NCBI GenBank assembly: GCA_041697335.1
Contig: JBGUGD010000039.1
Coordinates: 96,001-160,000 of the forward strand
DNA length: 64,000 bases
Source: Vampirovibrionaceae bacterium NZW_1234
GTDB lineage: Bacteria > Cyanobacteriota > Vampirovibrionia > Vampirovibrionales > JAGQHJ01
Reading direction: 5' to 3'
Of the stretch, positions 2,664-63,915 are shown piece by piece (the stretch's first letter is position 1; each line of letters opens with the position of its first letter). The notes under the pieces were generated by a model, which was given only the letters and a program-made list of their open reading frames with translations, had not been told where the DNA came from and ran no database searches. Both the position numbers and the translations under genes were made by a program.

Positions 2664-2807
2664 GGAACCTCAATGGTTACGGACACATCAAACCTGGATA
2701 AAAGGACAGATTCTGGAGAAGATATCGATCCGGGGCGAAAAAACTTCAATACCCCATCCAGTTTTTCGAAATTTATTTTATAGCTATTCCCCCGAGTTTT
2801 CAAGAGA

Positions 2808-3119: not shown

Positions 3120-3136
3120 ACCTTAAAACCCGGACT

Positions 3137-8228: not shown

Positions 8229-8383
8229 ACGTGCTCTCGCTCTCTCAGGACCATCGTCCCTGACCGGGACGTTCTCACATACACCTATCCTGATGATGAC
8301 CGATTTTGATGCCCTTGCCATCAACCAAACATAGGAGTCCTCATAAGGGACTTCCTCTAAGCGAATGTGAAGGGATAAATTTC

Positions 8384-9532
8384 TTATTTTCGGGGAGCGT
8401 CTGTGGAGACTCGGGCGAGTTCCTGATAAAGCTCTTTTTCTCTAGCTGACAGACTTTTGGGGGAAACAATGTAGACAGTCACGAACTGATCCCCTGTATT
8501 GTTGTTCAGCTTAACCCCTTGCCCTTTCAAGCGAAAGACCGTTCCCGAGTTGGTCAGGGCAGGAATCACCATTTTGACCTTGCCATGCAGGGTTGGCACA
8601 TCAATTTCGGCCCCAAGCACAGCCTCCGGAATCGTAATGGGTACATCACATGTAACCGTCAGCCCGTCAATCTTCAGGGCCTGCTCTTCCTCAATTTTGA
8701 TCAGCAGGAATAAATCCCCGGGTTCGCCGCCCTGAAGACCCCGCCCACCCTCTTTCGCCACACGAACCTTGGAACCGGCCTTGACGCCTGCCGGAATACG
8801 GACATCAATCTTTCGCACCGTCACCAATTGCTTATCCCCATGGCACACTGAACAAGGCAGACCATTGACCTTGCCTGTGGCCGAGCAGCGCTTGCAAGCT
8901 TCGGTGTGCTGAACACTAACCGTTTTCACAATACCTTGCTGAGACTCGTTGCGAGAGATAACCGTCTCCACCGTCACATCTTCACCTCGAACCGGCTTCG
9001 AGGAGGCCGCCTTGTTGGCGGCCGAATAGGCCCGTTGGGCATCGCGAACAGCCGAAGGCTCCGGACCGGATGAGGCAGCAGTATTGCCATCGGCTCTCTC
9101 GTCCTTGCGAAACAAAGAGTCAAACATATCTTTGAACCCGGCATTCTTGCCATCACCTGCGTCTGCGGAAGTTTGTTTGGTCGAGGACCCTGCTGAGGTT
9201 TTTGTCCGAGGAGGGGGCGGTGCTTTAGCATTTTTTGCCCTCCCACCAGAAGCGGGCTCTCGGGTTGAAGTCGACTGCGCCTGGGTGTTCTTGTCAGTCG
9301 ATGTTTTTCGACGAATGCCAAAACTTAAATCATAGGCCTGGCGTTTTTCAGGTTCAGATAATACGGCATAGGCTTCTCCCACCTGCTTGAACTTGGACTC
9401 GGCAATAGGATTTCCAGGGTTAATGTCCGGGTGGTACTTACGCGCCAGACGTCGGTAAGCACTTTTGATCTCCGCCATATCCGCCGACGGAGTCACTTCC
9501 AGAATGTCATAATACGTTTGACGGTGATCCAC
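8384..9532 (-). CDS. DnaJ-family co-chaperone (J domain, long linker, reduced Zn finger, C-terminal domain)
   Basis: YYDILEV...AYRRLARKYHPD J domain; only two CxxC motifs (CKRC, CSVC); C-terminal GDLFL and EAVLGAEIDVPTL. Confidence 0.9.
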   Translation of the reverse strand: MDHRQTYYDILEVTPSADMAEIKSAYRRLARKYHPDINPGNPIAESKFKQVGEAYAVLSEPEKRQAYDLSFGIRRKTSTDKNTQAQSTSTREPASGGRAKNAKAPPPPRTKTSAGSSTKQTSADAGDGKNAGFKDMFDSLFRKDERADGNTAASSGPEPSAVRDAQRAYSAANKAASSKPVRGEDVTVETVISRNESQQGIVKTVSVQHTEACKRCSATGKVNGLPCSVCHGDKQLVTVRKIDVRIPAGVKAGSKVRVAKEGGRGLQGGEPGDLFLLIKIEEEQALKIDGLTVTCDVPITIPEAVLGAEIDVPTLHGKVKMVIPALTNSGTVFRLKGQGVKLNNNTGDQFVTVYIVSPKSLSAREKELYQELARVSTDAPRK

Positions 9533-9591
9533 CCATAGACCCTCTGTTCAAGTCTATTTCCATGATGGCATTATCTCACAGCCCAGCCCAT

Positions 9592-44953: not shown

Positions 44954-44989
44954 GCAGAGAGAGAGAGTGGCGTGCCCATCTCTCTCTGC
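44954..44989 (+). other. Stem-loop after the pilin gene (mRNA stabiliser/attenuator candidate)
   Basis: GCAGAGAGAGAGAGTGG-CGTGC-CCATCTCTCTCTGC, with no clear U-tract. Confidence 0.55.
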
Positions 44990-45070
44990 GCTCTCCTATA
45001 TTTCATTTCAGACCGAATGTATCCCCCTAGAACGCCAACCATCCCATCAAGAATAAAGAGGCAACCTTTC

Positions 45071-45556
45071 ATGGCACCGTGTTTCAGGTATTTCAAGAGT
45101 TTTCATCGTTCCAAAAAGCAAGGGCAGGGCACCGTGGAAATGGTCATGTCCATGTTGCTGTTTACGGCCATGATTGGCGCCCTGGTGAGTTTGAGTTTAT
45201 ACCTTTACATCAATCACTCCTTCCTCACAGCGGCCAAAGAAGGTGCTCGGGTAGCTGCAGCCGACAGTAACTTTGCCAATACGGCAACCATCAATACCGG
45301 CATTACTAATGTTCGAAATTGGGTGCGTACCTTTGTATCGAACAGCACGGGCATTCAGCTATCAAACAGCAATATCAACGTCACGGGACCGACCGGGAGC
45401 TCAACCGGAAACCGCCGTATGACGGTGACGATTACCTATCAGTTTCAAAATCCGGTGCAAATCCGCACTTTTCTGAATCGTTTAAGTGGAGGATCCGCGA
45501 CCGGATTGGATACCTTTACGATTACCAATACGGCAACAATGCGCTACGAGGAGTAG
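45071..45556 (+). CDS. tadE: TadE-like pseudopilin
   Basis: G/QGTVEM prepilin motif, hydrophobic helix, AAKEGARVAA. Confidence 0.88.
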   Translation: MAPCFRYFKSFHRSKKQGQGTVEMVMSMLLFTAMIGALVSLSLYLYINHSFLTAAKEGARVAAADSNFANTATINTGITNVRNWVRTFVSNSTGIQLSNSNINVTGPTGSSTGNRRMTVTITYQFQNPVQIRTFLNRLSGGSATGLDTFTITNTATMRYEE

Positions 45557-45565
45557 GATCACACA

Positions 45566-46672
45566 ATGAGTTCCAAGCCAGGATCAGGCGGCCCCAAGCT
45601 GCGTCGTCTTAATATGGGTCAGGTGTTTATCATTTTGGCCGTGGTCAGTGCCGTATTGACCATGGTGGTTTTCAAAAGCATCATGAGCGGCCCTGCTCCG
45701 CAAAAGGCCGAAAAGGTCAAAACAAAGCCCTTGGTGGTTGCGGCGCAACAGCTATACTCGGGAGAAGTCTTACAAGCTAACAGTTTAAAAGTAATTGAAT
45801 GGCCTGCCGATCATTATCCAGAAGGAGAAAACGTATTTGATTCACCTCAAAAGCTTATTGGCCGTGCCCTTAAACGAGACATTTATCCCGGTGAGCCCCT
45901 TTTCAAAATGAGCTTGGCCAATGAATCATCCAATGGCGGTATGCCTGTGGTCATTCCACCCGGCCATCGAGCCATGACCATATTGGTTCGGGAAGACAAA
46001 GGTGTTGGCGGCTTCATCAAACCCGGTGATCACGTGGATGTGCTGGGGACCTTTAACCTCAAGCTGTCTCAAACCAGTGAAAAAGCAGTGGCTGAAAACA
46101 CCGGTGTCTTGTTGGAAGACAGCATCGATGTTTCCCAAACCGTCTTACAGGATGTCTTGGTTCTGGCGATCGCCCAGGAAATGTATGACAAGAAAAATGT
46201 CATCGAAGAAGGCTTAGAAGGGTCAAATTCAGGCAATCCCCCCGCCGAGACCAATGGCAATGGCACCACCCCGGCAAATAACAACAACGCCCCCAAAGGC
46301 GATGTGACTAAAGGTAAAGTGGTTTCCTCCATTACCTTGGCTGTAACACCGGAAGAAGCTGAAAAGCTGGCCTTTGCCGATACTCGTGGCCAACTCCGCC
46401 TGGCTTTACGCCCGGAAAACGAGCACGAAGAAGTCAGTCTGCTTGGGGCTTTCAGTCAGGACATGCTGCCTTTTAACAAAATGATGGAAAAGCTGGCCCA
46501 GATGACCGCCGGAATGGATCCATCCCTGTTTGGCCCCAAGCCCTCGGCCGCATCCTCCGAGTCCATGCCGCCCGCTCCCATGGCAGCCGCATCGGCCCCC
46601 CCGCCGGTCTTTACCAGCGGAAAAGAAATTCAACTGATTGAAGGAACCTCAAAAAGCAGTATCAGTTTCTAA
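45566..46672 (+). CDS. cpaB: Flp pilus assembly protein CpaB/RcpC
   Basis: SAF domain (VVAAQQL..GEVL), IPPGHRAMTI, VGGFIKPGDHVDVL, VLQDVLVLA, ITLAVTPEEAEKL. Confidence 0.92.
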   Translation: MSSKPGSGGPKLRRLNMGQVFIILAVVSAVLTMVVFKSIMSGPAPQKAEKVKTKPLVVAAQQLYSGEVLQANSLKVIEWPADHYPEGENVFDSPQKLIGRALKRDIYPGEPLFKMSLANESSNGGMPVVIPPGHRAMTILVREDKGVGGFIKPGDHVDVLGTFNLKLSQTSEKAVAENTGVLLEDSIDVSQTVLQDVLVLAIAQEMYDKKNVIEEGLEGSNSGNPPAETNGNGTTPANNNNAPKGDVTKGKVVSSITLAVTPEEAEKLAFADTRGQLRLALRPENEHEEVSLLGAFSQDMLPFNKMMEKLAQMTAGMDPSLFGPKPSAASSESMPPAPMAAASAPPPVFTSGKEIQLIEGTSKSSISF

Positions 46673-46803
46673 TAAAGAAGAAAGAACACACGTTCACAAC
46701 AAACACAACCGTAAACCCAATCGACCCCTAGAATAAAAGGTGTGCTTATTTTTTAGACAAACAGAGCAGAGTTGGAGACAAGGCGAGGAGTTCGTTTTTT
46801 ACA

Positions 46804-49350
46804 ATGAAGACTAAGTTAATGGCACTGGCCCTGACCATGGCCTTATGCAACAGCAGCACACTGGCTCCGCTGGCACTGGCCGCAGCCACAAAAGCACCGC
46901 AAAGTCCGGTTATTCGAAGCACCATTAGCCAAAATACAACCCAATTGGAACTCACCATGGGCAAAGCCCAGGTTATCCGACTCAGTAGCCCTGCTAGCCG
47001 TGTCTCTATAAGCGATCCCCAAGTTGTGGGTGTTGTCCTCATCAGTCCCACCGAAGTCGAGCTAATCGGTAAAGCCGTCGGAGTAGCAAACCTGCTTATC
47101 TGGAACGAAAACAGCGGCTCAAACTACACCACCATCGACTTATCCGTTCATCGTGACGTATCAACCCTTGCCAACAAGATTCAAATGATTGACCCCGGCA
47201 TCAATATCCTGCCGGTCGCTGCGGAAGATTCCGTTATTTTGACCGGTGTCGCCGAGTCCCAGGACAAAGCCCAACTGGCGTATGATTTAGCCAAAGCTTT
47301 CTTCTCCGAAGATCGTGCTGGACAAGGGCAGGCCAATGAAGTCAGCAGTAACTCCCCAGGCAGTGCACTGCAGGCCCAGAGTTCAACAAAAATCATTAAC
47401 CTGATTCGCGTGATGGGCCAGCCCACCACCAAAGCCGAAATGGTTCAGGAGCAGCTGAAGAACATTGATCCCAACATCAAACTCAGCATCGTTCCAGGCT
47501 TTGGCGGCAAGGAGAAAGCCATTTTAATGGGTCGGGTGAAAAACAGCAGTGCCGTCTCCAAGGCCATCAACCTGGCCGGTGTGTTCTATGGCACACCGGG
47601 CATTAAAATTCTTGCCGGCCAAGGTGGAAACCTGGTCAAAGAAGAGGGCGGCAGCAGCTCTTCTTCAAACGACAGCAGCTTTACAGCAGGCAGTGGCGGC
47701 GATCTGGTCAGCAATTTTGCCGGTAACATCCTCCATGGCTCCATTATGACCGATGCCTCTGGCAACGTGGTCAGTATGCTGGAAGTGGAAGAGCGCCCCC
47801 AGATCAAATGCACCATCAAGTTCCTGGAAGTCCAGAAAACCAACGTCAATAATTACACCATTTCTCATTTCCTCGCCGGTGAAACCGCCCGGTTTGCCTC
47901 CTATCAAGGTGGCCTGGGCCAAGGTGTCGTTGCCGGGACCACCACCAATGTCTTGTTTACCACCATCGAAAGCTTTTTTAACCAGGTCAACGGGGCCAAC
48001 AACGCAACATTGGGGATCCGCTATGGTGGAGACTTCTCCAGCGTCTTAAACGGTCTGGTTAGCAACGGTGTGGCCAAGGTCCTGGCGGAGCCAACGCTGA
48101 CCAGTATCAGCGGTGAGCCTGCCTCCTTCCTCGCTGGCGGTGAGTTTCCCATTCCCTTAATCAACAGTACCGGTGGGGTCAGTATTATCTTTAAAGAGTT
48201 CGGTATTCGCCTCAACATGTTGGCCACCGTCACCGACCGCGGCACCGTCCACATGCAGGTCAGCCCTGAAGTCAGTGCTTTGGACGCAAACTCCTCCGTA
48301 AACATCAGCGGGTTCCGGGTTCCCGGCTTAAGCACCCGCCGCAGTCAAAGCGTTCTGGAGATGAACAATGGCGACTATTTCGTCTTAAGCGGGCTCTATA
48401 ATGACAGTTCGACCCGAAACCTGATTAAAACCCCCTTACTGGGACAGCTCCCGATTTTAGGAACCTTGTTCCGCAGCAAAGCTTTCCAGGAAGCCAAAAC
48501 GGAGATTGTCATTGTGGTTCACCCTGAGATCCAATCTCAAATGAATCTCAGTGCCGTGGAATCCCGCAGAGATGCCAATGCCCCTAAAATTAGCGCCGAT
48601 GCCGAAGCCGTTTTGAAGGCCTATCAAATCCCGGGAAGCACCACAACCGCCTCCGAAGGCAAGCCTGAAACCAAGGCCGATACAAAAATCCTGGCCAGCA
48701 CCGATCCCAAGGCTGAGCTGAAAGCGGCAGCCGGGTCGGGAACCACTTCGGACGGCAAACCCACCCGAGAATTCAAACGTGCTTTGAAAAAAGCACAAAA
48801 AGAAGCACAACGGCTTGCCAAAGAAGCCCAAGAGGCAAAAGCTGCTGAACCCCAACCAACTGCCAAGCCCGATTCGACAGCAACAGCCCCATCAACAGAT
48901 TTAGGGACAGTTAGTGGCGCTGCAGGCCAGGTCATCCTTCCCGCAGGTCTGGAAGATTACCTTAGCACTCAAAAGCAAGAACTAACCAACCTGCTAGGGC
49001 GTCTCGAGGCATCCGTAACCCCAGAAGTGGTTGAATCCAGCCCGAAGCCAAGTCCCCAGACCCCAACTGCCAAAGCCCCCCAAGCTACGGCTCCGGCAGC
49101 GGCCCAGAAAGCACTCCCCTCGGCAAAGCCTGGCCAGACCAGTGCCAAAGTGAGTGACATTCCGGCTAAAAGTCTCAATAAGGCAACCACCAGCGGTAAA
49201 CCACTGGCGCCAAAAACCAAAGCCACAAACGTTCCCAAACGTGTAAAACCCACAACCACTGGGGTTCTTCCTCCCCGTAAACCGGATGTGGCCGTACATG
49301 TCAACAAAATCCGACAAAGCCTCACCCAATTGTTAAGTTTCAATCCTTAA
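46804..49350 (+). CDS. cpaC: Tad secretin CpaC/RcpA with two BON-like domains and a long low-complexity tail
   Basis: Signal peptide, pilus-formation N-domain, LAEPTLTSISGEPASFLAGGEFPIP, FKEFGIRL, P.LGQLPILGTLFRS. Confidence 0.92.
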   Translation: MKTKLMALALTMALCNSSTLAPLALAAATKAPQSPVIRSTISQNTTQLELTMGKAQVIRLSSPASRVSISDPQVVGVVLISPTEVELIGKAVGVANLLIWNENSGSNYTTIDLSVHRDVSTLANKIQMIDPGINILPVAAEDSVILTGVAESQDKAQLAYDLAKAFFSEDRAGQGQANEVSSNSPGSALQAQSSTKIINLIRVMGQPTTKAEMVQEQLKNIDPNIKLSIVPGFGGKEKAILMGRVKNSSAVSKAINLAGVFYGTPGIKILAGQGGNLVKEEGGSSSSSNDSSFTAGSGGDLVSNFAGNILHGSIMTDASGNVVSMLEVEERPQIKCTIKFLEVQKTNVNNYTISHFLAGETARFASYQGGLGQGVVAGTTTNVLFTTIESFFNQVNGANNATLGIRYGGDFSSVLNGLVSNGVAKVLAEPTLTSISGEPASFLAGGEFPIPLINSTGGVSIIFKEFGIRLNMLATVTDRGTVHMQVSPEVSALDANSSVNISGFRVPGLSTRRSQSVLEMNNGDYFVLSGLYNDSSTRNLIKTPLLGQLPILGTLFRSKAFQEAKTEIVIVVHPEIQSQMNLSAVESRRDANAPKISADAEAVLKAYQIPGSTTTASEGKPETKADTKILASTDPKAELKAAAGSGTTSDGKPTREFKRALKKAQKEAQRLAKEAQEAKAAEPQPTAKPDSTATAPSTDLGTVSGAAGQVILPAGLEDYLSTQKQELTNLLGRLEASVTPEVVESSPKPSPQTPTAKAPQATAPAAAQKALPSAKPGQTSAKVSDIPAKSLNKATTSGKPLAPKTKATNVPKRVKPTTTGVLPPRKPDVAVHVNKIRQSLTQLLSFNP

Positions 49351-49359
49351 AGGAAACAC

Positions 49360-49388
49360 ATCGCCATCCCAAAAATCGGGATGGCGAT
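49360..49388 (+). other. Stem-loop after cpaC
   Basis: ATCGCCATCCC-AAAAATC-GGGATGGCGAT. Confidence 0.6.
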
Positions 49389-49650
49389 CCCCCCCTGGAT
49401 CTGTCAACCTCAACTCCCTGCGCTCTATTGGCCCCTATCCGATGAGAAGGTCAAAGACGTGATAGCGAAGGTGCATCTCCTTCAGGTGAGCGACCGCCAT
49501 AAAGAAAATGACAGCTTGGTCGATACCTTCAGTGTATGAGGAAGTTCATCGCCAACGCTCAGAGACGACTGTGAAACCGATGGGTCATATGAACCGACAG
49601 CCCGATAGCTTGGACACCTCAGGCCCCATGACACTTGAGACACTATACCT

Positions 49651-50886
49651 ATGAGAGTAATTGCTGTCGCCAGCACCGAAGAAACCCGAAATATGCTTAC
49701 TAAGCAGCTCCAGCAGCTTAGTTTCATTAAGTTCGACGGTGTTGTGACAGAGCTTTCCGACGCCCAATCGTTGTGGCAAAAGCAAAAGCCCGATTTGCTC
49801 ATTATCGACCTGACCGACCGAGAGCTCGATGCCTGTCTCTTTATCGAAGTCATCAACTACAACGTCGAGAGCAAAACCGTGGTGTTCGGTCTGCACCGGG
49901 AACTGGATCCCAACATCATTGTCAAAGCCGTCTCCAGTGGTGTGAAAGAGTTTATTCAATACCCCAAAGACCCAGCAGCCCTGGAAGCTGCTATCGAAAA
50001 GCATTGGAACTTCCATCAAAAGCTGGCCTTGAAACAAAAAGGCGAAACAGAGCGCGACTACGGCAAAGTCATCCCAGTCTTTGGCAGTAAAGGTGGGGTC
50101 GGGGCCTCCACGGTGGCCGTTAACCTGGCTCACCAGCTACGCTTAGTGACCCGAAAACCGGTTCTCATCTTTGATATGGACCAGGTTTTTGGCAATACAG
50201 CCGTCATGCTCAACTTTAAGGCCAGCTATGCCCTGTCCGATCTGGTGAATGAAAACCCCAACGACATTGATGATGCCGTCTTGGATAAAATCATCGTCCA
50301 CCACGAAACCGGCATCGACCTGATTGTGGCTTGTAAAAGCGTGTTGGATGAAAACCCGCTCATCCCTCCCGAGCTTCTCGAGCGGGTCATGACCTACATC
50401 AAATCCCGGTATGAGTTCATCATCATCGATTTACCCACCCATGTCGTGGATCCGTACCACCAGTACTTTGTGGAAAGTGCCGATGATATTCTCCTGGTGT
50501 CGTCCTTGGACATTCCCGGCCTCTATCGGACCCGCCAGTACATCGAACTGGTGAAGCGCCACCTGGACACCAACAAGGTCAAGCTGATCCTCAACCGCTG
50601 CGACCTCAAAGCTGCGGTAGGAATGTCAAACGAAAGCATTGAAGAAGAGTTTAAATACCCGATCTACTTCCGTCTGCCCAACAATTGGCCGTTAAACGTG
50701 GAAGCCATGAGCCTGGGCCAGGCTCTGGGGATGGTATCTCCCCAGGCGGATTTGGTAAAGGCCTTTCAGGAACTGGCCACCAAGTTGTCCGGCATTGCCA
50801 CATCCTTGGAACCTGAGCGCCAGTCGGAAAAATCCACCGGATTCTTTGGACGATTAACACGGAGAAGCAGTCATGTCGCTGGTTAG
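49651..50886 (+). CDS. cpaE: CpaE/TadZ (receiver-like + MinD/ParA-like ATPase)
   Basis: N-terminal receiver-like domain (PDLLIIDL); deviant Walker A GSKGGVGAST; IIIDLP. Confidence 0.9.
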   Translation: MRVIAVASTEETRNMLTKQLQQLSFIKFDGVVTELSDAQSLWQKQKPDLLIIDLTDRELDACLFIEVINYNVESKTVVFGLHRELDPNIIVKAVSSGVKEFIQYPKDPAALEAAIEKHWNFHQKLALKQKGETERDYGKVIPVFGSKGGVGASTVAVNLAHQLRLVTRKPVLIFDMDQVFGNTAVMLNFKASYALSDLVNENPNDIDDAVLDKIIVHHETGIDLIVACKSVLDENPLIPPELLERVMTYIKSRYEFIIIDLPTHVVDPYHQYFVESADDILLVSSLDIPGLYRTRQYIELVKRHLDTNKVKLILNRCDLKAAVGMSNESIEEEFKYPIYFRLPNNWPLNVEAMSLGQALGMVSPQADLVKAFQELATKLSGIATSLEPERQSEKSTGFFGRLTRRSSHVAG

Positions 50887-52294
50887 ACAAGGTTGGGGCG
50901 GGTTCAACAAAAAACCCGGTGAATCGGGCCCAGGCCAAGAGCCTGAAACCCCGCATACCGAAGAAACGGCAAGTGAACTGACGGCAAAAAAAGACCAATC
51001 GGCAACAGCCTTGGCTGTAAAAACCGAAAAAGAGAGTGAATCCGAGCAACTGCGGGTCCGGATTCATCGCAGATTGATTGAAGAAATGGATACCACGCAG
51101 CTCAACGATATTAATCCCACAGAGCTGCGTAAACAAATCCGCCAGGCCGTCAATGAACTCCTGTTGGAAGAAAATGCCTTGCTAACCCAAATCGAGCGGG
51201 ATCGGCTGGTCGATGAAATTCTGGACGAAACCATGGGCTTGGGTCCCTTGGAGCCGTTACTGCGGGACAAAACCATCAGCGAAGTCATGGTCAACGGCGC
51301 CAAACACGTCTACGTGGAGCGCAAGGGCAAGCTCGTACTCACCGATGTGCAGTTCAAAGATGACGGCCACTTGATGCAAATCATCGATCGCATTGTCTCT
51401 CGCATCGGTCGCCGGGTCGATGAAAGCACCCCTCTCTGTGACGCCCGTCTTCAGGATGGCTCAAGGGTCAACGTTATCATTCCGCCCCTGGCCATTGATG
51501 GCCCGGCGCTGACCATTCGGAAGTTTTCGGCAGACCCCTACAAGGTCCAGGATCTGATTAATTTCGGCTCCCTCTCGCCTATGGCGGCCGAGGTCCTAAA
51601 AGCCTGTGTTTATGGCCGATTGAATATCATCATCTCCGGCGGTACGGGCTCCGGGAAAACCACGCTCCTTAACGTGGTCTCCAGCTTTATCCCCGATGAC
51701 GAGCGGATTGTCACCATTGAGGACGCCGCCGAGCTACAACTGCAACAGGAGCACGTGGTGCGCCTGGAAACCCGACCACCCAACATTGAAGGCAAAGGCC
51801 AGATTACCATGCGAGATCTGGTCAAAAACTCCCTTCGGATGCGCCCCGAGCGGATTGTTGTCGGGGAGGTCCGGGCCGGAGAAGCCCTGGACATGCTTCA
51901 AGCCATGAACACCGGTCACGATGGCTCTTTGACAACGCTTCACGCCAACACCCCTCGAGACGCCCTTCGTCGCCTTGAGACGCTGGTGATGATGGCAGGC
52001 TTTGACCTGCCGCAACGCGCCATTCGGGAGCAGATTGCCTCGGCCGTCGACTTGATTGTTCAGGCTTGCCGCCTGAGTGACGGAAGCCGCAAGGTCATGA
52101 GCATTACGGAAATCGTCGGCATGGAAGGCGACGTGGTGTTACTGCAGGATATCTTCCTCTTTCGCCAGGAAGGTGTGGATGAAAATGGCAAAATCATTGG
52201 CGAATTCAAATACACCGGTGTCCGACCCAAGTTCCTCGAACGAGTGCTGGCGTCGGGGGCCAAGCTGGATGTCTCGATGTTTGAGCAATTCTAG
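50873..52294 (+). CDS. cpaF: Tad pilus assembly ATPase CpaF/TadA
   Basis: [51 protein letters not shown]. Confidence 0.96.
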
Positions 52295-52324
52295 ACATCA
52301 AAGTGATGGAGGCACGTAGGCGCG

Positions 52325-53266
52325 ATGGATCCCTTGTATATTGTACCGGTCATCCCCATTCTCTTTGCCTTTGCGGGGGTGTACTACCTGTTCTTTGCCA
52401 AAAAAGACCAGGCCCGTGAGTTTGTTCATCAGCTCTTCAACGAAGAAGACCGCGCAGAGCAGATGCGGCGGATGCAGCAACAACATTACATCCTCAAAAA
52501 GCGCAACAAAGATCAAAGCAAGTTTCTCCAACGCCTGGATATGGATTTAGAGCGGGCCAACCTGATGATCAAACCCAACGAATTCATCATGTTGGCCGTT
52601 GGCGCCGCTTTTTTCTGCGGCCTGATTACTCTGGCCATGGGAAAAGGCCTTTTCCTGACCATTCTCGCTGGCACGGGCGGTTTCTTTTTACCCCAAATGT
52701 ACCTTAAAATCCGCATCATGATGCGGATGAGCAAAGCCCGGGCCCAGTTTGCCGATGTTCTGGACATGATGGTCAGCTGTTTCAAGTCCGGCTACGGCTT
52801 TGCTCGCGCCGTGCAAGTGGTGGCCGAAAACTTTACCGACCCCTGGTCCACGGAACTGAGTAAAGTGGCGGCAGAAATGAATTTCGGCTCTACCCAGGAA
52901 GATGCCCTATTGGCCCTGGCCAAACGGATTCCGAACCCGGATGTGGCCTTATTTGTGACCGCTGTTTTGATTCAGAAAGAAACCGGCGGCAACCTGGCAG
53001 AATTGCTGAGCAATCTGAGCCACACCATCCGGGATCGCTACAAGCTCCTCAGCAAAGTCAGCGCCTTATCGGCACAAGGCAAGCTTTCGGCCATTATTGT
53101 ATTTCTGATTCCCTTTGGTCTGGCCGGGGTATTTACCTTGATTATGCCCGAAATGATGAACAACTTTGCCCATAACCCCATTGGCATCTGTCTTATCGGG
53201 TTTGCCCTGGTGATGCAGGCCATTGGTGGCGTTGTACTCAAGAAAATCGTCTCATTGGAGGTGTAG
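52325..53266 (+). CDS. tadB: TadB inner-membrane platform protein
   Basis: T2SSF domain: IQKETGGNLAELL, ALSAQGKLSA. Confidence 0.92.
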   Translation: MDPLYIVPVIPILFAFAGVYYLFFAKKDQAREFVHQLFNEEDRAEQMRRMQQQHYILKKRNKDQSKFLQRLDMDLERANLMIKPNEFIMLAVGAAFFCGLITLAMGKGLFLTILAGTGGFFLPQMYLKIRIMMRMSKARAQFADVLDMMVSCFKSGYGFARAVQVVAENFTDPWSTELSKVAAEMNFGSTQEDALLALAKRIPNPDVALFVTAVLIQKETGGNLAELLSNLSHTIRDRYKLLSKVSALSAQGKLSAIIVFLIPFGLAGVFTLIMPEMMNNFAHNPIGICLIGFALVMQAIGGVVLKKIVSLEV

Positions 53267-53270
53267 TGCC

Positions 53271-54242
53271 ATGGAAATGATTATTCTCGGTGCGCTCATC
53301 TTCTTCACCTTGGCCATGGCCGCCTTCGGGGTCATCCAGTCGAAAAACGAAAGCCAGGTCAAAGCCCGCGTATCAAACCTGAACCCAGGTGCGGCACCGA
53401 GCAAAGCCCTGACGGGCCGCCAGAAAAATTTTGATGACAGCTTCACCCAGCGGGTCATTATTCCCTTTGCCCAAAACCTGTCGGATAAAATCCAAACCCT
53501 CATTCCTTTGTCCGGCAAATCCTGGATTCGAATGAAGCTGATGCAGGCCGGATACTTGCGCCCGCAGTACCAGCGAACCTTCATGGGCGTTCACTGTATT
53601 ACCACCGTGGCCCCGTTGTTGTTTGTGGCCTTTCTGGTCCTCATTACCCACTCGGTATCAGGCCTGGTCGCGACGCTTCTGTTTGTCATGTTTGGCGGAA
53701 TGGGCTTCTTTATGCCCATCCTGTGGCTCATTCAGCAAGCGTCCAAACGGCAAAACAGCATCCGAAAAGCCCTGCCGGATTTTCTCGATCTCCTGGTCAT
53801 CTGCGTGGAGGCTGGCTTGGGCTTGGATGTGGCCATTGCCAAGATTTCCAAGATCGAGTCCGTACAGACCTCTGAGTATTTAAGAGAGGAACTGCTGCGG
53901 TATTCCAAAGACATCAGCTTTGGCAAGCCTCGTAAGGATGCGTTGATGGATTTGGCCAACCGGACCGGGATTGACGACCTCAATGCCATCGTCAACGCCT
54001 TGATTCAGGCTTATGAAATGGGCACCGGCGTGGTTCAGGCCTTGAAAGTCCAGTCGGAAGGTCTTCGCCAGAAGCGCCTTCACCGGGCCGAAGCGGCTGC
54101 CAACAAGATTTCGGTCAAAATGGTGCTGCCCATCTACATGTTCTTCTTTCCGGGCATCTTTATCGTGATTCTCGGCCCCTTAATCCTGCATGCCTTCCAG
54201 CAGATTACGCAAACCATGCACCAGACCGGCGGTGGCCCTTAA
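53271..54242 (+). CDS. tadC: TadC inner-membrane platform protein
   Basis: LPDFLDLLVICVEAGLGLD, KISVKMVLP; ATG 53271 with GGAGG upstream. Confidence 0.92.
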   Translation: MEMIILGALIFFTLAMAAFGVIQSKNESQVKARVSNLNPGAAPSKALTGRQKNFDDSFTQRVIIPFAQNLSDKIQTLIPLSGKSWIRMKLMQAGYLRPQYQRTFMGVHCITTVAPLLFVAFLVLITHSVSGLVATLLFVMFGGMGFFMPILWLIQQASKRQNSIRKALPDFLDLLVICVEAGLGLDVAIAKISKIESVQTSEYLREELLRYSKDISFGKPRKDALMDLANRTGIDDLNAIVNALIQAYEMGTGVVQALKVQSEGLRQKRLHRAEAAANKISVKMVLPIYMFFFPGIFIVILGPLILHAFQQITQTMHQTGGGP

Positions 54243-57428: not shown

Positions 57429-58214
57429 TTAATCCAGAATCAAAGGCGCATTACGCTCGTGAGGCAAGCGGTACAGCCCCGGCGGCGGGGCTGCCTGCTG
57501 GCCTTGGGTTCTTGTCAGATCCAACGGCACATTAAGGCGCACCACCAGATTATGATTCAGCTGATTGCGACCGGGGCTGGCCACATCCACAAACTGCAGC
57601 ATATATCCGGCCTCGACAAAGGACTTGTTCTTAAACGTCCGACGAAACCCCGTAAACACCCGCTCCTGGTTAAACCCTGAATCAATGTGAGGCGTATCAT
57701 TAAGGTTCATCAGCAGCTCATTACTGGCCACCCAGGACCAGGGTCCTTTACGAAGGGGCACGAGTGCCCGAATCAAATAACGTCCCCGGACCGACACCTC
57801 GGCCTGATCCTCGATAAACCGTTGCTCCAGGCGAAACTGATGATTAAACCGGACCTTTTTAACGGCATGATTAATCATCGCCTGCTGCCACACCCGTTGC
57901 TCAAACTGCACACTTGAATCCCCAGCATCATCGGTCGGAAAAATGGGGGACCATAAATAACCGGCGGTCAGGCTCAGATGCGTGTTCACATCATAGGTCA
58001 CAGACGGGCGCACCCGGACCAAGGCCAAATGGGTGACGTTCTCTGAAATACGAGGCTGCACCTCCACCGACAACCGGAATTTCTTGACCGGAACCTCCAG
58101 GGTTACCGGCAGCCAAAGCTGCAAATCGTCTTCTAGAGCCCATGCGCTTAGCCCGCTCTGGGCAATCAGCAGCACCCCAAGCAGCAACCCCATCCCCCAC
58201 CTGAAAAAAATCAT
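57429..58214 (-). CDS. DUF2490-like outer-membrane beta-barrel protein
   Basis: Signal peptide; EQRVWQQ, RLEQRF, FNQERVFTG, VEAGYM alternating beta strands. Confidence 0.8.
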   Translation of the reverse strand: MIFFRWGMGLLLGVLLIAQSGLSAWALEDDLQLWLPVTLEVPVKKFRLSVEVQPRISENVTHLALVRVRPSVTYDVNTHLSLTAGYLWSPIFPTDDAGDSSVQFEQRVWQQAMINHAVKKVRFNHQFRLEQRFIEDQAEVSVRGRYLIRALVPLRKGPWSWVASNELLMNLNDTPHIDSGFNQERVFTGFRRTFKNKSFVEAGYMLQFVDVASPGRNQLNHNLVVRLNVPLDLTRTQGQQAAPPPGLYRLPHERNAPLILD

Positions 58215-58522
58215 TTCTATAGACCTGAGTTCAATGACACACAAGGAAGAGAAATCTGCCGCAGCAATCCACTCCGGGGCACCAGATCACCGCTTAGACC
58301 TTCATCGACTCTGGAACCAAGGTTCCCAATCCGGAAAAATACTGAACAAAGACAAATTGAGACACGTGAGCGTTTCATAAAAGATGCTCCCGACTATGCT
58401 ACTGGAATCTCAAACATCCACTCAGGCAGAAACAGCTACCTTACCGAGAATCAACCCGAAGAATCCGATTTCGCTCGGCCTGCGGGAATCCCAAGCCCCT
58501 ATGCCGTGGGCTCAACGTCTGT

Positions 58523-58741
58523 TTAGGATTTTTTGTGGCCCTTGCCCAGAAACACCGAATACAGCAGCAAGGCCATACAAATTCCCAGAATAATGACAAT
58601 GGACCAGAGCACCAGGCTGCTACTCAGGAAGAGGGTGGGCAAGAACAAGGTCATCAGGAAGAACAACCCAAAAAAGAACAGCACCCAGTGTTCATCAACA
58701 AATTCGGTGAACGTCATATGATCATGATCGTGATCGGACAT
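58523..58741 (-). CDS. Small 2-TM protein with His/Asp-rich N-terminus, end of respiratory operon
   Basis: MSDHDHDH..., GAGGGAG RBS. Confidence 0.7.
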   Translation of the reverse strand: MSDHDHDHMTFTEFVDEHWVLFFFGLFFLMTLFLPTLFLSSSLVLWSIVIILGICMALLLYSVFLGKGHKKS

Positions 58742-58762: not shown

Positions 58763-58891
58763 TTACGCTTCTGCAATGAGACCGAAACTGGCAATCATCA
58801 ACAGCAGGAAAAAGAAAAAGGAATAAAACCAGATATATCTCATAAAGAGACCGATTTCTTGCTGTGAATCGACTTTGGCGGCTCGAACCAT
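58763..58891 (-). CDS. 42-aa single-TM protein not in the ORF track
   Basis: MVRAAKVDSQQEIGLFMRYIWFYSFFFFLLLMIASFGLIAEA*; AAGGAG upstream; fills the gap between neighbouring genes. Confidence 0.65.
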   Translation of the reverse strand: MVRAAKVDSQQEIGLFMRYIWFYSFFFFLLLMIASFGLIAEA

Positions 58892-58917: not shown

Positions 58918-59331
58918 TTACGACTTTGCGCCAGCGCCGGCGTCATACGTATTGAGGAAGCTGACAAACTCCGTTGCCATTTCCCCAAAGCGGCTGTACT
59001 CCAGAGCCGATAACCAGTAGGCCTGAATGCGCTTACGATCGATGCTGGCACGCAGTTTGGGCTGACGCTCACCTTCCAGGCGAGCCTTGAGAAACTTGTT
59101 GCCTTCGCGGTAATAGCAATCACCAATACGGCAACCCGTGGTAATAACGCCTTCGGCGCCCTGTTTCAAGGCCGACTCAATCATGGCCGGTTGAATATGG
59201 CCACTGCATGGGACCTGAATGACATGGACATCAGGGCATTCAGACAGACAGCGATTGTTATCGAGTCTGTTTTTGAAATCAACACTCCGTTCGCAAACCA
59301 GAGCGATTACTTTAACTTTTTTGGCATTCAC
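58918..59331 (-). CDS. MvhD/FlpD-like [2Fe-2S] protein (hydrogenase iron-sulfur subunit family)
   Basis: ALVC, QVPCSGHI, GAEGV..TGCRIGDCYYREGN; GTGA overlap with the upstream gene. Confidence 0.88.
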   Translation of the reverse strand: MNAKKVKVIALVCERSVDFKNRLDNNRCLSECPDVHVIQVPCSGHIQPAMIESALKQGAEGVITTGCRIGDCYYREGNKFLKARLEGERQPKLRASIDRKRIQAYWLSALEYSRFGEMATEFVSFLNTYDAGAGAKS

Positions 59332-60536
59332 GATTGGGTGCTCCCTGCTAAAGCAACTTGTATCTCTTTCAGTACAACATCCGTAGTCATGCGGGGAATT
59401 TCAATGGCCTTAAAGGCACAGGCCCCAACGCAAAGACCACAGTTGGAACAGCGATCGGCGTTCACCACAGCCAAGCGCTTGAATCGGCTGTCATCATCCC
59501 GATCGACCATCTCAATGGCTTCGTAAGGACAGTCGTGGTAGCACAAGGAGCAACCGGTACAGTTGTCGGTCACCACCTGAGCAAACTGGCCCTGGAACTG
59601 TTTCTTTTGAATATAGGGCAAGAGTAACATTGCGACCGGGATGCCCAGGGTCACAGCCCATGCGGCCTGGAGACTGGCACCATTGGCAATCAGGCCATGG
59701 GGCAGCATGTAAAGCCAGTCAATCTCCAGTACACCACCCGGATTGGTCAGGTTCGGCGGGGCACCGACTTTAATCGGCATCAGGCCACAGGCCACCAACA
59801 AGCCACCGAACATCATCAGGTTCAACACCAAGGGGGCATTGGTCACCGGGCGGGTAATGCGCAGGTAATGCCACCAGAGGAAGAAGAGCATGGAGGTGGG
59901 GATAGCCAGGTGGAGAAACAGATAGCGGGTCAGCGTGAAATCGGTGACGATGCTGCCGCCAATCAACAGCTCTGCCAAGGCCTTTCCGCCAAAGGGAAAC
60001 GCTTGGAGGAAGTTGGTGGTGACATAGGTCAGGGTCACGGAGTTGTCATCCCAAATCAGCATGTACCCGGTCAAACCGGCCAAAAAGAGAATCGTAAACA
60101 GGATGACCCCGGTGATCCACGGTAAAATCCGATACTCCCGGTAGCGATCCGTAAACCAGACGCGGAAGAAGTGCAGCAGCACGAAGATCATCATCCCATC
60201 GGCCGCATACCGGTGCATGGCCCGAAACAGCGCCCCGGACGGAATCTGATTGGTCATATAGAGAATCGACGGGTAGGCCCGTTCCAAGGTGGGGTTGTAG
60301 TAGGCAAACAACAGCAGCCCGGAAATGAACAACACCCATAAAAAGAAGTTGGGCAACGCACCATGGTAATAGAACGGATTGAACTTTTGTGAAAACACGA
60401 CGTTCAACAAACGCTCAATACCCAGCGTCAGCCGTTGCAATTGAGAGATCAACCCTCGATAAGCATCAGAAATGGCTTGGCGTACCACCTTGTTTAATCT
60501 CCTATGATCTATCCGCTTCAGACTTGGTGACGACAT
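59328..60536 (-). CDS. Cytochrome b (four His retained) fused to a 2x[4Fe-4S] ferredoxin domain
   Basis: RAMHRYAADGMMIFVLLH, TGYMLIWD, FLHLAIPTSMLFFLWWH; C-terminal CTGCSLCYHDCP and CSNCGLCVGAC. Confidence 0.9.
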   Translation of the reverse strand: MSSPSLKRIDHRRLNKVVRQAISDAYRGLISQLQRLTLGIERLLNVVFSQKFNPFYYHGALPNFFLWVLFISGLLLFAYYNPTLERAYPSILYMTNQIPSGALFRAMHRYAADGMMIFVLLHFFRVWFTDRYREYRILPWITGVILFTILFLAGLTGYMLIWDDNSVTLTYVTTNFLQAFPFGGKALAELLIGGSIVTDFTLTRYLFLHLAIPTSMLFFLWWHYLRITRPVTNAPLVLNLMMFGGLLVACGLMPIKVGAPPNLTNPGGVLEIDWLYMLPHGLIANGASLQAAWAVTLGIPVAMLLLPYIQKKQFQGQFAQVVTDNCTGCSLCYHDCPYEAIEMVDRDDDSRFKRLAVVNADRCSNCGLCVGACAFKAIEIPRMTTDVVLKEIQVALAGSTQS

Positions 60537-60732
60537 TATCCTCTTTGTCCAAAGCGGTCAGTGCGGCCCCAATGGCAACAAAGACCAACCCGGCACCCAA
60601 CGCCCAGCGAAAATATTCGTGGGGATTGTTGGCTGTCAGTGTTTCGGCATTGAACATGAGATAAAGCCCGACGAAGCCTAGCGCGGAAAAAACGACGGCA
60701 ACTGCGACTTTCAGAACTTGAAGAACAGGCAT
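60502..60732 (-). CDS. Small 2-TM protein in respiratory operon
   Basis: 76 aa, two hydrophobic helices, TAATG overlap with the upstream gene. Confidence 0.7.
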   Translation of the reverse strand: MPVLQVLKVAVAVVFSALGFVGLYLMFNAETLTANNPHEYFRWALGAGLVFVAIGAALTALDKEDNVVTKSEADRS

Positions 60733-61010
60733 TATTGGCTTTTCTCCCGATGTCGTAATTTACAATACTGATGATCGATCCATTCAAACAACCCGACCTG
60801 GCGGACCAGTTTATCTTCGCGCTTGGCCTTCATATAGGCGTCATGACCGAGGATAATCAGGGTGAGGACCAGAATGCTCAACCACAAAATGAAGTTCGGC
60901 ACACTGGCCTCGGGCGACTCGGACGTCAAGAGGCGCGAAGCGGCAAAGACCTTGGACAGAGCAAAGGTCGATACCAGAAACCAGGTCCACCATAGCAGTC
61001 GTTGGATCAT
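60732..61010 (-). CDS. Small 2-TM protein in respiratory operon
   Basis: MIQRLLWWTW...; ATGA overlap with the cytochrome b stop; GGAGG upstream. Confidence 0.7.
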   Translation of the reverse strand: MIQRLLWWTWFLVSTFALSKVFAASRLLTSESPEASVPNFILWLSILVLTLIILGHDAYMKAKREDKLVRQVGLFEWIDHQYCKLRHREKSQ

Positions 61011-62437
61011 GCGGCTTTGGCCTCCTGTGCCACTTGGCGCTTGGAGCCGGTGGCCATAAAGATCAGGCTTAAGCCCAAGAGCAGCAACGAGTAAATGAAC
61101 CACATCGTAAAGTAGGGATGTTTGGCAAATTCAAAGGTGTTGTGAACGATGCTCGGATGATCGGCATACAAGAGATTCATAAACCCTTGCGGTGCCGGTT
61201 TGGGCATCACGTACAGGAAGAAGTACCAGCCGCTCAGCAACAGGTTGGGAACCACAAAGAACAACCAAACATGGATTTGACGGTAGATGGCGTAATGCCA
61301 CAATTCGGCAACGGTCATCATCACGATCATTTGGGCATACCAGATTGGCGGATCCCGGTTAATGTCGGCCACGTTCATGATGATCAGGATGGAGAACAGG
61401 ATAAAATCGATCAGACCGATAATGGCCGCCACGGTAAAGATGGGCCGTTTCCAGGGATCCCGCTCGGGACCGAAATCCAGAAACATTAAGGCAATGGTAA
61501 TAAACGGAATACCCACGGTCCAAATGGTTGCCCAGTAAGGATCCATGTACTTCAGCAATTGGTACAGCGCCAGGAAGTACCAGTCCGAAAGAATCGGCAG
61601 GGGAGTAACCTCCGGGTTGGCCCGGCTGCCCATTTCCGCGGGCAACACAATGGTGGTCAACAGCAGCATCCCGATAAAGGTCAGCACTGACCAGCGGGGC
61701 AGGTTAATACGCTTGTACCGGTTTTTGTAGAAATACAGTTCGGAAATCACCAGGGCAATCAGGGAGATCCCAAAGTGCAGGGAGAAGAAGCGAGTCATCG
61801 TCGCCTGACCGATGGAGGCCCCTCCCAGAAGCATCTGGGAAACGTTGTTGCCTTGATTGGTGTATTGGCCTAACAGAAACGTGGTCGTCCCCACAAGCTT
61901 GGGGAAGAACCAGTATTCTGTAGGGGCTTTCACATCGAGGTAGGTGGGGAAGGTTCCGAAGATCTTGGTCGCCCAGAAGGCCCGTTGGTTCCAGATCAAC
62001 AGGTACCCGGTCAGACCGGAGTACATGGCGGCCACCAGGATGATCATCGCAAGAATAAAGGCAAATTCACCTTTATTCTTGTACTCGGCCCGGAACCACA
62101 TCCGATAAACCTTCAGGGTGGAGGCAATGATAATGGCGTCGCCACCATACTTGTGCATCCCCCGGATGATTCCCAGAATCAGGTTTTCCTTGATGGCAAT
62201 AATGGAATCATAGGCCTGAAAGGTACTGGGAATGTAAAACGCCACCAGAATCAGACCGGTAATCACCGTAATGATCCAGTACAAATAGGCGATACTGCCC
62301 AGTTGATACCAGGGGGAACTGGCTTGAAGGTCCGTTTTGGTTTCGTCAAAGACGTCGATTTTAGCAAACCGATCGGAGACGTAGCGAAACGCCTTGTCCA
62401 GCATCTGAGGGGGGTTAAAGGGTAAATTAACGCCCAC
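61007..62437 (-). CDS. Cytochrome b (unsplit b6 + subunit IV type) lacking both heme bH His ligands
   Basis: TGLILVAFY.PS..AYDS, RGMHKY, TGYLLIWNQRAFWA, TRFFSLH, ANPEVTP..ILSDWYFL, RDPWKRP. Confidence 0.9.
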   Translation of the reverse strand: MGVNLPFNPPQMLDKAFRYVSDRFAKIDVFDETKTDLQASSPWYQLGSIAYLYWIITVITGLILVAFYIPSTFQAYDSIIAIKENLILGIIRGMHKYGGDAIIIASTLKVYRMWFRAEYKNKGEFAFILAMIILVAAMYSGLTGYLLIWNQRAFWATKIFGTFPTYLDVKAPTEYWFFPKLVGTTTFLLGQYTNQGNNVSQMLLGGASIGQATMTRFFSLHFGISLIALVISELYFYKNRYKRINLPRWSVLTFIGMLLLTTIVLPAEMGSRANPEVTPLPILSDWYFLALYQLLKYMDPYWATIWTVGIPFITIALMFLDFGPERDPWKRPIFTVAAIIGLIDFILFSILIIMNVADINRDPPIWYAQMIVMMTVAELWHYAIYRQIHVWLFFVVPNLLLSGWYFFLYVMPKPAPQGFMNLLYADHPSIVHNTFEFAKHPYFTMWFIYSLLLLGLSLIFMATGSKRQVAQEAKAA

Positions 62438-63052
62438 TTATGCAATACCTCCTCGTTCTAAATCCGTAATAACCAGCGTCTTGGACGCCTCATCCAAGTG
62501 GAAGGCAAATTGCCGGGGCGGACGAGGTGCAGGACCACTGACCACCTTACCGGACATGGATTTTCCATCCACGTTTTGATCCTGCAAGGGGTCATAAACG
62601 CTTAAGTGGCAAGGACAGCCAAAAACAGGCAACCCTTGCGGGGGCTTATAGTTAAAACTGGCGGCCGACTCTGCCGGATCCGGCAGGTAGCGGAAGATAC
62701 ACCCCATGTGCGGGCAGATGCGGCTGTAGGCCACAAACTGATAATCATCGGGGCTCTTGCCGGGAATCCGAAGGACGTAACCGGGAATTTTACTGATTTG
62801 GGCCCCTTGCCGGGTGTACTCCGGCGCTTTTTGCTCGTAGACGAATTCCTGAACCACCCAGGGTTCAGGGAATGCCGACAGAGGGAAGGTAATGGGCTTC
62901 ACACTGGAGGGCATATCGGGCTTGGAAACCATCCCATGGGGGAAGGGTCCGGCCGTGGGCTTCAGGTACCGGAACAAGGGTGACACAAACAGCAGGAGCG
63001 CTCCAAAAAGCGGGACGCTCAGCGCAAATTTCAAAAATAAACGTCGATTCAT
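62438..63052 (-). CDS. Rieske [2Fe-2S] protein with Tat signal
   Basis: MNRRLFLK; box 1 CPHMGC; box 2 CPCHLSVYD; GPAPRP. Confidence 0.93.
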   Translation of the reverse strand: MNRRLFLKFALSVPLFGALLLFVSPLFRYLKPTAGPFPHGMVSKPDMPSSVKPITFPLSAFPEPWVVQEFVYEQKAPEYTRQGAQISKIPGYVLRIPGKSPDDYQFVAYSRICPHMGCIFRYLPDPAESAASFNYKPPQGLPVFGCPCHLSVYDPLQDQNVDGKSMSGKVVSGPAPRPPRQFAFHLDEASKTLVITDLERGGIA

Positions 63053-63915
63053 CGGATACGATTCTCCCCGGATTCAGGCATCAGGGCACTGACTTCACGC
63101 ACAGGCTTTTTGGGCAAGGCGGAGGTCTTGGGTGCCTCTTTGGCTGGCGCAGCCTCTAAGTCATAGTCATAGGCAAACCCGCGGATGTATTTCACCAGGT
63201 CCGTAATGGTGGCCCGATCAAACACCACGTTCTTGTCCCGATCCGCTCGGCCTTTCCAGCTTGGCATGGCCGACGGATAGAGGCCTTCTTCAATAAACTT
63301 GATCAATTCGTTATTGGTCCGGTTGTACATCCGGGCATAGCTGTGGAAGTTGGCCGGCGGCGGGTTAAATTGGTTTTTCACCGGCGCCATGCCCAACTCG
63401 TGAGCCGACCCGTGGCCCGAATGCAGCGGACCGTCGGCAAAGCCTTTGGCCCCGTGGCAAACGGCACAGTTTCCACCAAACACGGCCGCAATGTCCTTGT
63501 TGGCAATCTGGGATTCACCGGCCAGGTGACGGGCATAGAAAACCGCTTCCCAACGCTGGTCTCGGGTCAATTGACGAAAAGCCGGGTGCTTGCCCCCATC
63601 GCCCTTGGTCAGAAACAGGTAGGTATCAATGGGGCGAGAGGCCATCATTTTTTCCGTGGCCATAGCCTTACCGGCGTGGCAGGAAGCACAGTTTTGCTCA
63701 AACACCACTTTGCCGCGGCTTAAGCGAGGCGGGCGCTCGGGGAAGGCAAAATCTTCCTCAACCAGCTTCTTGTTCAGCTCCGGAACAGCCACCAGAGTCT
63801 TGGCATTTTTAATCTGCTTTTCTTGCGTCGCACACCCGGCCAAGGTTCCCACCATCAGGACCCCGGCCAGAAGGGAGGCAAAAAGCGTTTGAAACGTCAG
63901 TGTCGTTTTGTACAT
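63049..63915 (-). CDS. Diheme c-type cytochrome lipoprotein
   Basis: Lipobox LAG-C; CASCH and CAVCH; distal SAMPSW. Confidence 0.88.
   Translation of the reverse strand: MYKTTLTFQTLFASLLAGVLMVGTLAGCATQEKQIKNAKTLVAVPELNKKLVEEDFAFPERPPRLSRGKVVFEQNCASCHAGKAMATEKMMASRPIDTYLFLTKGDGGKHPAFRQLTRDQRWEAVFYARHLAGESQIANKDIAAVFGGNCAVCHGAKGFADGPLHSGHGSAHELGMAPVKNQFNPPPANFHSYARMYNRTNNELIKFIEEGLYPSAMPSWKGRADRDKNVVFDRATITDLVKYIRGFAYDYDLEAAPAKEAPKTSALPKKPVREVSALMPESGENRIR

Follow-up and report, generated by a model that had tools for sequence, protein, structure and literature searches.

Operon layout and the MvhD-like protein

The window, a stretch of 64,000 nucleotides from contig JBGUGD010000039.1 of Vampirovibrionaceae bacterium NZW_1234, carries near its end a minus-strand operon for a Rieske/cytochrome b complex (complex III) in which the gene of an MvhD/FlpD-like iron-sulfur protein follows that of a cytochrome b-ferredoxin. 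The order of the operon is ccoN, ccoO-cytochrome c, dihaem cytochrome c, Rieske protein, a first cytochrome b (b-1), two small hydrophobic open reading frames (ORFs), a second cytochrome b joined to a ferredoxin domain (b-2), mvhD and two further small ORFs. The mvhD gene (58918..59331, minus strand) encodes 137 amino acids (aa) with a predicted [2Fe-2S] cluster at Cys13, Cys42, Cys67 and Cys72, and is preceded by GGGAG 9 nt upstream of its GTG start. That start codon (59331-59329) overlaps the TGA of the b-2 gene (59330-59328) as GTGA; gene and overlap had been described in an earlier note on this DNA, and were confirmed, the overlap from the coordinates and the gene from the match of the protein to PF02662 (FlpD) at 83.9 bits (curated cut-off 22.3). 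Solved MvhD chains in the PDB are matched with an E value of 6e-16, the four cysteines line up with 10 of 10 Hdr-linked rows and are present in 27 of 27 MvhD rows of this operon type, and no other FlpD protein was found in the genome, which is 94.75 % complete.

The b-2 gene occupies 59328..60536 on the minus strand (402 aa; translation may start some codons within this ORF) and combines a PF00033 cytochrome b with two CxxCxxCxxxC motifs (C326-336 and C363-373) in a ferredoxin part at approximately 59331-59600, predicted to hold two [4Fe-4S] clusters. On the NCBIfam model of HdrA2, an HdrA-MvhD fusion, b-2 residues 313-397 match positions 566-642 and MvhD matches positions 648-770, contiguously, and the profile comparison thereby bears out the earlier assignment of the ferredoxin domain to the HdrA C-terminal type and continues it into MvhD. 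The best single PDB stretch over the whole ferredoxin domain and last helix is the C-terminus of HdrA (7bkb_A, 588-670), which polyferredoxins outscore for the ferredoxin domain only through summed repeats, and the HdrA of a relative aligns with the domain at 35 % identity over 84 residues, to the very end of HdrA.

Outside Vampirovibrionia, cytochrome b, ferredoxin and MvhD form a single polypeptide in 22 of 23 loci, and the operon proteins are homologous to these fused proteins at 27-35 % identity. The MvhD-like protein is almost certainly coupled to the cytochrome b-ferredoxin protein, because the ferredoxin domain and MvhD match HdrA2 contiguously and other phyla have all three parts as one protein. 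An AlphaFold2 model of one fused protein (L066:5653-7254) reached a pLDDT of 88.3 and a pTM of 0.86; this confident fold and the natural fusions favour the docking of MvhD with the ferredoxin domain that the earlier note had supposed. Foldseek and VIA-align searches with the 534-residue model returned cytochrome b and ferredoxin chains only, without MvhD chains among the top 50 rows, and no solved chain in this structure search covered the fused architecture (best TM by query 0.43). At an E value of 1e-30 or better the fused family comprises 1070 clusters at 50 % identity, which may include ordinary cytochromes b.

The remaining genes of the operon lie on the same strand. Upstream of b-2 are hydrophobic ORFs of 76 aa (60502..60732; homologues in the three closest loci) and 92 aa (60732..61010; ATGA overlap with cytochrome b-1), neither with an NCBIfam family and both likely accessory subunits, the latter partly on the basis of the relatives' loci. 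Cytochrome b-1 (61007..62437) is preceded by the Rieske gene (62438..63052), whose product carries CPCHLSVY, the S-Y signature of high potential, and by the dihaem cytochrome c gene (63049..63915), whose product has a lipoprotein-like N-terminus; ccoO-cytochrome c and ccoN lie further upstream, just beyond the window (G000:C2:160299-162740). Directly after mvhD stands a conserved single-helix ORF of 42 aa (58763..58891), also a likely accessory subunit, followed by a His-rich membrane ORF of 72 aa (58523..58741) that is present in a few close relatives. The closest named loci are from Vampirovibrionales, at 77-78 % identity, and a scan for promoters and terminators gave signals at chance level. 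Downstream of the operon is a DUF2490 protein gene (57429-58244, minus strand) with two paralogues elsewhere in the genome, which was not seen in the relatives' loci. A run of plus-strand ORFs at 44972-54242 reads, from its translations, like a Tad/Flp pilus cluster (TadE-like, CpaB, secretin, CpaE, ATPase and two membrane proteins).

MvhD follows b-2 in 26 of 27 loci of this operon type, and the remaining locus ends inside b-2. Of 80 metagenome b-1 loci, 44 have at least 3.6 kb downstream, and 43 of these carry both b-2 and MvhD; in the sole exception b-2 runs over into unrelated sequence, perhaps through a misassembly, the switch in the contig of a close relative (L149:8949-9761) falling at residue 283. 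The gene is thus near universally syntenic in relatives. A survey of 201 genomes of the class gave a strong b-1 match (E below 1e-100) in 115, FlpD in 115, both in 113 and neither in 84, so that the two occur together in 113 of the 117 genomes with either, counts to which no statistical test is attached and in which kin are not independent; contig ends account for three of the four exceptions. In a sample of the phylum FlpD was found in 5 of 201 genomes, and the two of these that lie outside the class have it next to HdrA-like ORFs. All 12 cluster cysteines of the arm and adjoining surface residues are invariant in the lineage. The same operon type, its b-1 having a distinct helix D, is also found on contigs of 67-69 % GC (L177, L194, L196, L199-L201, L212, L216 and L219), which probably belong to another lineage.

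Two unequal cytochromes b and the iron-sulfur arm

Cytochrome b-1 has the bL ligands His95 and His221, a cd1 helix and the Qo-type motif SDWY, and both of its bH ligands are gone, with Lys109 at one site and no His at 235/236. The bH ligands are missing from 25 of 25 rows, in which the sites hold Lys/Arg and a hydrophobic residue and the bL ligands, cd1 helix and SDWY are kept. A further 120 homologues all have SDWY, with R/K at position 109 in 119 of them; one carries in helix D a His outside the canonical sites. Cytochrome b-2 has all four haem histidines (His108, His122, His209 and His223), as do 53 of 53 rows of b-2-type chains and at least 173 of 174 fused-family rows, and in the alignment rows it has no conserved Qo motif (IDWLY stands in its place) and no cd1 helix. 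Neither protein has a Cys at the position of cytochrome b6 Cys35, which marks haem cn; b-2 has a Tyr there, and Thr228, five residues after the bH histidine, at the position of b6 Arg207. The canonical Qi signature is likewise absent from b-2, although a non-canonical site is conceivable, and neither chain unites a Qo motif, bL and bH in one cytochrome b as in bc1 and b6f. The Rieske protein, with both cluster motifs (CPHMGC...CPCH), and the cytochrome c, with two CxxCH motifs, are of the kind found in those complexes, and the best PDB sequence matches are cytochrome b6 (2zt9_A/1vf5_A). His58 of b-2, at the position of the b6 Qi/haem cn pocket, is invariant in 26 of 26 rows; it is also seen in the contigs of high GC (NPLYFHGA). 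Many genomes of the class, those without the operon among them, have a further cytochrome b family of approximately 365-375 aa, one example of which (L140) has PEWY; the family was not found in the present genome (G000), where b-1 and b-2 were the only cytochrome b genes found.

By the logic of the Q cycle, a cytochrome b without bH cannot dispose of its second electron. Since b-1 alone could not do so, b-1 and b-2 are inferred to form a heterodimer, and the loss of the bH ligands of b-1 would make the iron-sulfur arm necessary. In such an asymmetric complex III the MvhD-like protein would likely be a permanent subunit. Judged by its sequences, this is a real and conserved variant of the Rieske/cytochrome b complex with an Hdr-type iron-sulfur arm.

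The geometry of the arm was approached by mean-field covariation over 174 fused-family rows (effective sequence number, Neff, 167; 486 columns). The fourth-ranked pair corresponds to Arg229 of b-2 in the window, six residues after the bH ligand His223, and Glu76 of MvhD, four residues after Cys72. Basic/acidic counts for the two columns are 119, 32, 2 and 21 (nominal p 8e-11, inflated by relatedness), compared with a next best p of 3e-4 among 38 cytochrome b columns and of 0.014 among 74 ferredoxin/MvhD columns. Arg75, Glu76 and Arg89 are lineage residues of the operon MvhD that Hdr-linked MvhD proteins lack. The pair hints that the MvhD cluster is the one adjacent to haem bH, with the Arg75/Glu76 loop toward cytochrome b-2 and the ferredoxin pair as the exposed port. 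In Hdr complexes the donor's electrons reach the MvhD-type [2Fe-2S] cluster by way of these [4Fe-4S] clusters and go on to FAD (PMC12350162). On the covariation and this cluster order, the port exposed to the cytoplasm is more likely to be the ferredoxin clusters than MvhD. A cytoplasmic electron port for a donor or acceptor, as the earlier note had proposed, is the best reading of the arm.

Electron partners and direction of flow

Family searches of the genome found no NiFe hydrogenase (PF00374), no FeFe hydrogenase (PF02906) and no NuoF (PF01512). Apart from this locus, six HdrA/MvhD-type queries from relatives' loci matched just one ferredoxin stretch and two short pieces. CCG domains, as in HdrBC, were found in a single protein, of unrelated appearance. 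Another contig carries one FdhF/YdeP-family molybdoprotein, next to which no iron-sulfur partner subunit was seen. The absence of HdrA and hydrogenase near the operon, remarked on from the window, extends to the assembled genome, with the qualification that formate-dehydrogenase-like genes are not wholly absent; hydrogenase, named in the earlier note as a possible partner, drops out. A docking of MvhD on a hydrogenase or formate dehydrogenase, in the style seen for Mvh- and Fdh-Hdr complexes, would agree with the role of MvhD in Hdr complexes and could draw on the molybdoprotein, but with no hydrogenase of either type found and the molybdoprotein unlinked and alone it is highly improbable.

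Candidate partners present in the genome are a PetH-like FNR, two small ferredoxin-like ORFs, a KorABC-type 2-oxoacid:ferredoxin oxidoreductase and an 11-subunit complex I, and they fit either direction of electron flow. Longer fusions that would name a partner were not found among 6476 candidates (0/6476); another search gave 2 of 8000, both plain fusions, and a Pfam scan of 12 long or odd representatives gave only one SCO-joined ORF of doubtful reality. A CcoG/NapH-like membrane ferredoxin (G000:C9:39815-40789), below both cut-offs, is unlinked to the oxidase operon.

The genome encodes a futalosine route to menaquinone, with two PF02621 proteins (MqnA/D-family), MqnC over the cut-off and one MqnP-like prenyltransferase, and a search for MenD gave nothing over the cut-off. 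Of 23 loci, 19 have S-Y as their Rieske signature and 4 have S-F; the metagenome loci gave 75 motifs, every one of them S-Y or S-F. S-Y is the signature of Rieske proteins above 260 mV, and xDWY/menaquinone complexes are low-potential (PMC4122944); for anammox complexes the same mismatch of Rieske protein and menaquinone has served as an argument that bL is very low and that NAD(P)H is formed (PMC12954380). The high-potential signature in a menaquinone organism favours export of the low-potential electron, and export to the cytoplasm is tentatively taken as its direction, at a little less than even odds. By the symmetry rule of PMC12954380, bL would lie at approximately -420 to -440 mV and bH at approximately -290 to -310 mV.

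The reading preferred here, to which we assign a probability of about 0.45, is that of an asymmetric complex III in which b-1 oxidises menaquinol and b-2 delivers the low-potential electron to the cytoplasm rather than to a quinone at Qi. Menaquinol would be oxidised at Qo of b-1 within the b-1/b-2 heterodimer. One electron would pass through the Rieske protein, the dihaem cytochrome c and the cbb3 oxidase to O2, and the other from bL of b-1 to bL and then bH of b-2, the MvhD [2Fe-2S] cluster, the [4Fe-4S] pair and a soluble carrier. Candidates at hand for this carrier are the small ferredoxins, the PetH-like FNR and NADP+. In this scheme haem bH would occupy the position of FAD in HdrA. The wider proposal, that the heterodimeric complex III of aerobic Vampirovibrionia carries out a quinone-based bifurcation in which O2 respiration pushes menaquinol electrons to ferredoxin or NAD(P)+ through the Hdr mobile arm, with bH replacing the bifurcating FAD, is somewhat more doubtful.

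Several points weigh against export. No acceptor gene is linked to the operon, and the exported electron would have to go against the membrane potential. Typical ferredoxins lie near -400 mV, so that bH at the potential given above would be marginal for NAD(P)+ and uphill for them. His58 of b-2 is a possible ligand of quinone or of an extra haem, and might take part in reducing quinone. The covariation draws on related sequences (Neff 167), most of its other inter-domain pairs look like noise, and Thr replaces Glu76 in 12 of 49 MvhD motifs of metagenome loci. There are menaquinone users whose Rieske proteins span all potentials (PMC4122944), and in Hdr complexes the flow is from the donor through the ferredoxin domain to MvhD, that is, toward the position that bH would take (PMC12350162). 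The fused family, finally, stands mostly beside NOR-like oxidases with no Rieske motif in the locus, so that the module does not need a Q cycle.

That last point rests on the loci of other phyla. Of the 23 fused-type loci, 20 encode a haem-copper subunit I that has H-x-x-Q-Q and lacks the active-site Tyr at that place, often together with CuA-type subunit II, SCO and UbiA/CtaA-type genes, and tyrosine-less B-family-like enzymes have been proposed or shown to be nitric oxide reductases (PMC11214002). No Rieske motif was found in the fused-type loci and no b-1-type match in the 23 genomes, eight of which (completeness not given) have the fused protein as their only cytochrome b match. A second, degenerate COX1-like ORF without the HH copper ligands lies beside the NOR-like oxidase at L051:2956-4455, L055:9687-11516, L056:2880-4445, L066:7726-9144 and L072:728-2275. 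A membrane-anchored domain of approximately 170 aa, without a Pfam family or a named look-alike, is fused to or follows cytochrome b-ferredoxin-MvhD in other phyla (L049:7717-8244 and the C-termini of fusions of approximately 700 aa). Locus L055 pairs a b-[2Fe-2S]-FNR with a b-ferredoxin-MvhD gene (2163-4247 and 7902-9533) and L066:4028-7257 holds two tandem b-ferredoxin-MvhD copies; both are possible heterodimers without a Rieske protein. A tree of 61 MvhD rows (all included) has three groups, in which the Vampirovibrionia adjoin the Hdr-linked proteins at 89/72 on long branches; as it has no root, no donor is claimed and the order of events is not told. A direct graft of an HdrA module onto a complex III, as first imagined, is only one possible course of events, given the widespread fused family beside NOR-like enzymes and a tree that is unrooted and weak at this node.

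The same heterodimer may instead run in the input direction. Reduced ferredoxin, supplied by the 2-oxoacid:ferredoxin oxidoreductase or FNR, would enter through the [4Fe-4S] pair and MvhD and provide bH of b-2 with the second electron needed to reduce quinone at a Qi site of non-canonical type, in the manner of a b6f-like ferredoxin:quinone cycle. Such a flow would be energetically downhill and in the Hdr direction, the KorABC-type and PetH-like genes are at hand, and the invariant His58 sits in the Qi/cn pocket. It is nevertheless unlikely: b-2 lacks the Qi His/Arg and the cn Cys, the high-potential Rieske signature in a menaquinone organism would be left unexplained, and the route would bypass the 11-subunit complex I (no NuoF found), which is inferred to conserve more energy from the same ferredoxin, an argument also made in PMC12954380. 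Because the fused wire works without this complex III, an oxidase-tied role is a further candidate, in which b-2-ferredoxin-MvhD would be a stand-alone wire from cytoplasm to periplasm for electron supply or copper/haem maturation of a haem-copper oxidase and would belong to the operon because of ccoNO. The tyrosine-less subunits of the fused-type loci, the lack of b-1-type matches in their genomes and the tracking of FlpD by COX1 (118 of 201 genomes of the class) as closely as by b-1 all fit it. It is rather improbable, as b-1 would have no exit for its second electron in a genome with no other cytochrome b, b-2 sits among complex III genes, the genome has a separate gene of CcoG/NapH-like type, and the additional membrane-anchored domain that typifies the fused family was not seen in this operon. 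The chance is slight that the arm is a redox or oxygen sensor or regulator, or only primes the complex with little steady flux while b-2 completes an ordinary Q cycle; no partner gene is linked and the fourth MvhD cysteine is kept in only 142 of 174 fused-family rows, but the cluster cysteines and surrounding surface residues are invariant in the lineage and b-2 lacks a Qi signature.

Relation to known systems

Complex III is taught as a homodimer that returns its low-potential electron to quinone. A division of this work between two cytochromes b, if true, would be a natural test of bL-bL transfer between monomers. The respiratory chain in question belongs to the sister group of oxygenic cyanobacteria. 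Should the arm export electrons, the system would offer, in a culturable lineage, a model for the still unproven anammox idea of a quinol bifurcation that yields NAD(P)H or reduced ferredoxin. This wire is also the hallmark of a large uncharacterised family found next to NOR-like oxidases. The operon itself and the cytochrome b-FlpD fusion are already in print. A literature search gave no description of the bH-less/MvhD design or of its biochemistry, although subscription papers and preprint supplements may hold one, and Melainabacteria are not mentioned in the accessible part of PMC5600118.

With bc1 and b6f the operon shares a Rieske protein, two cytochrome b folds, a c-type cytochrome and the Qo-type motif and cd1 helix of b-1; it differs in having two different cytochromes b, one without bH ligands and the other without the Qo motif, Qi signature and cn Cys, and in the cytoplasmic iron-sulfur arm. 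That arm resembles the HdrA C-terminus and MvhD, the mobile arm of Mvh-, Fdh- and Elp-Hdr (5ODC, 7BKB, 8RVU), in the sequence and order of two [4Fe-4S] clusters, C-terminal helix and four-Cys MvhD, but is attached here to a cytochrome b, and no HdrA flavin domain, HdrBC or hydrogenase was found. The complex III-IV operon of Melainabacteria/Vampirovibrionia, with a C-family oxygen reductase together with two genes related to cytochrome bc (bioRxiv 10.1101/531145, citing Soo et al. 2017; PMC6349859), is alike in these components, and the accessible portions of both sources do not mention the ferredoxin fusion, MvhD or the loss of bH.

The anammox Rieske/cytochrome b complexes with NAD(P) oxidoreductase (PMC12954380) are alike in the high-potential Rieske protein, menaquinone and a cytoplasmic iron-sulfur path proposed to export low-potential electrons. 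Their modelled membrane cores are homodimeric, with haem cn and a dedicated flavoprotein, whereas the present operon has no linked flavoprotein and would combine two unequal cytochromes b with an Hdr-type arm. The eNOR operon of Ferrigenium (bioRxiv 10.64898/2026.01.22.701106) holds genes for cytochrome b-[Fe-S] and cytochrome b-[Fe-S]-FAD-NADH, a proposed quinol:NAD+ oxidoreductase detected in the proteome; its layout is that of locus L055, MvhD/FlpD is not named in the available text, and loci of the L055 type, unlike the present operon, have no Rieske protein or bH-less partner. The domain set of the 'PDWF-FeS clade' (Kao and Hunte 2014, PMC4122944), namely cytochrome b, 4Fe-4S and the delta domain of methyl-viologen-reducing hydrogenase (FlpD), is matched here by two overlapping genes; a variant fused to a flavin reductase was also noted there, and the text as available gives no mechanism. 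In that clade the domains form one polypeptide with no Rieske gene in the cluster, whereas here they are split between two genes and paired with a Rieske protein and a bH-less b-1.

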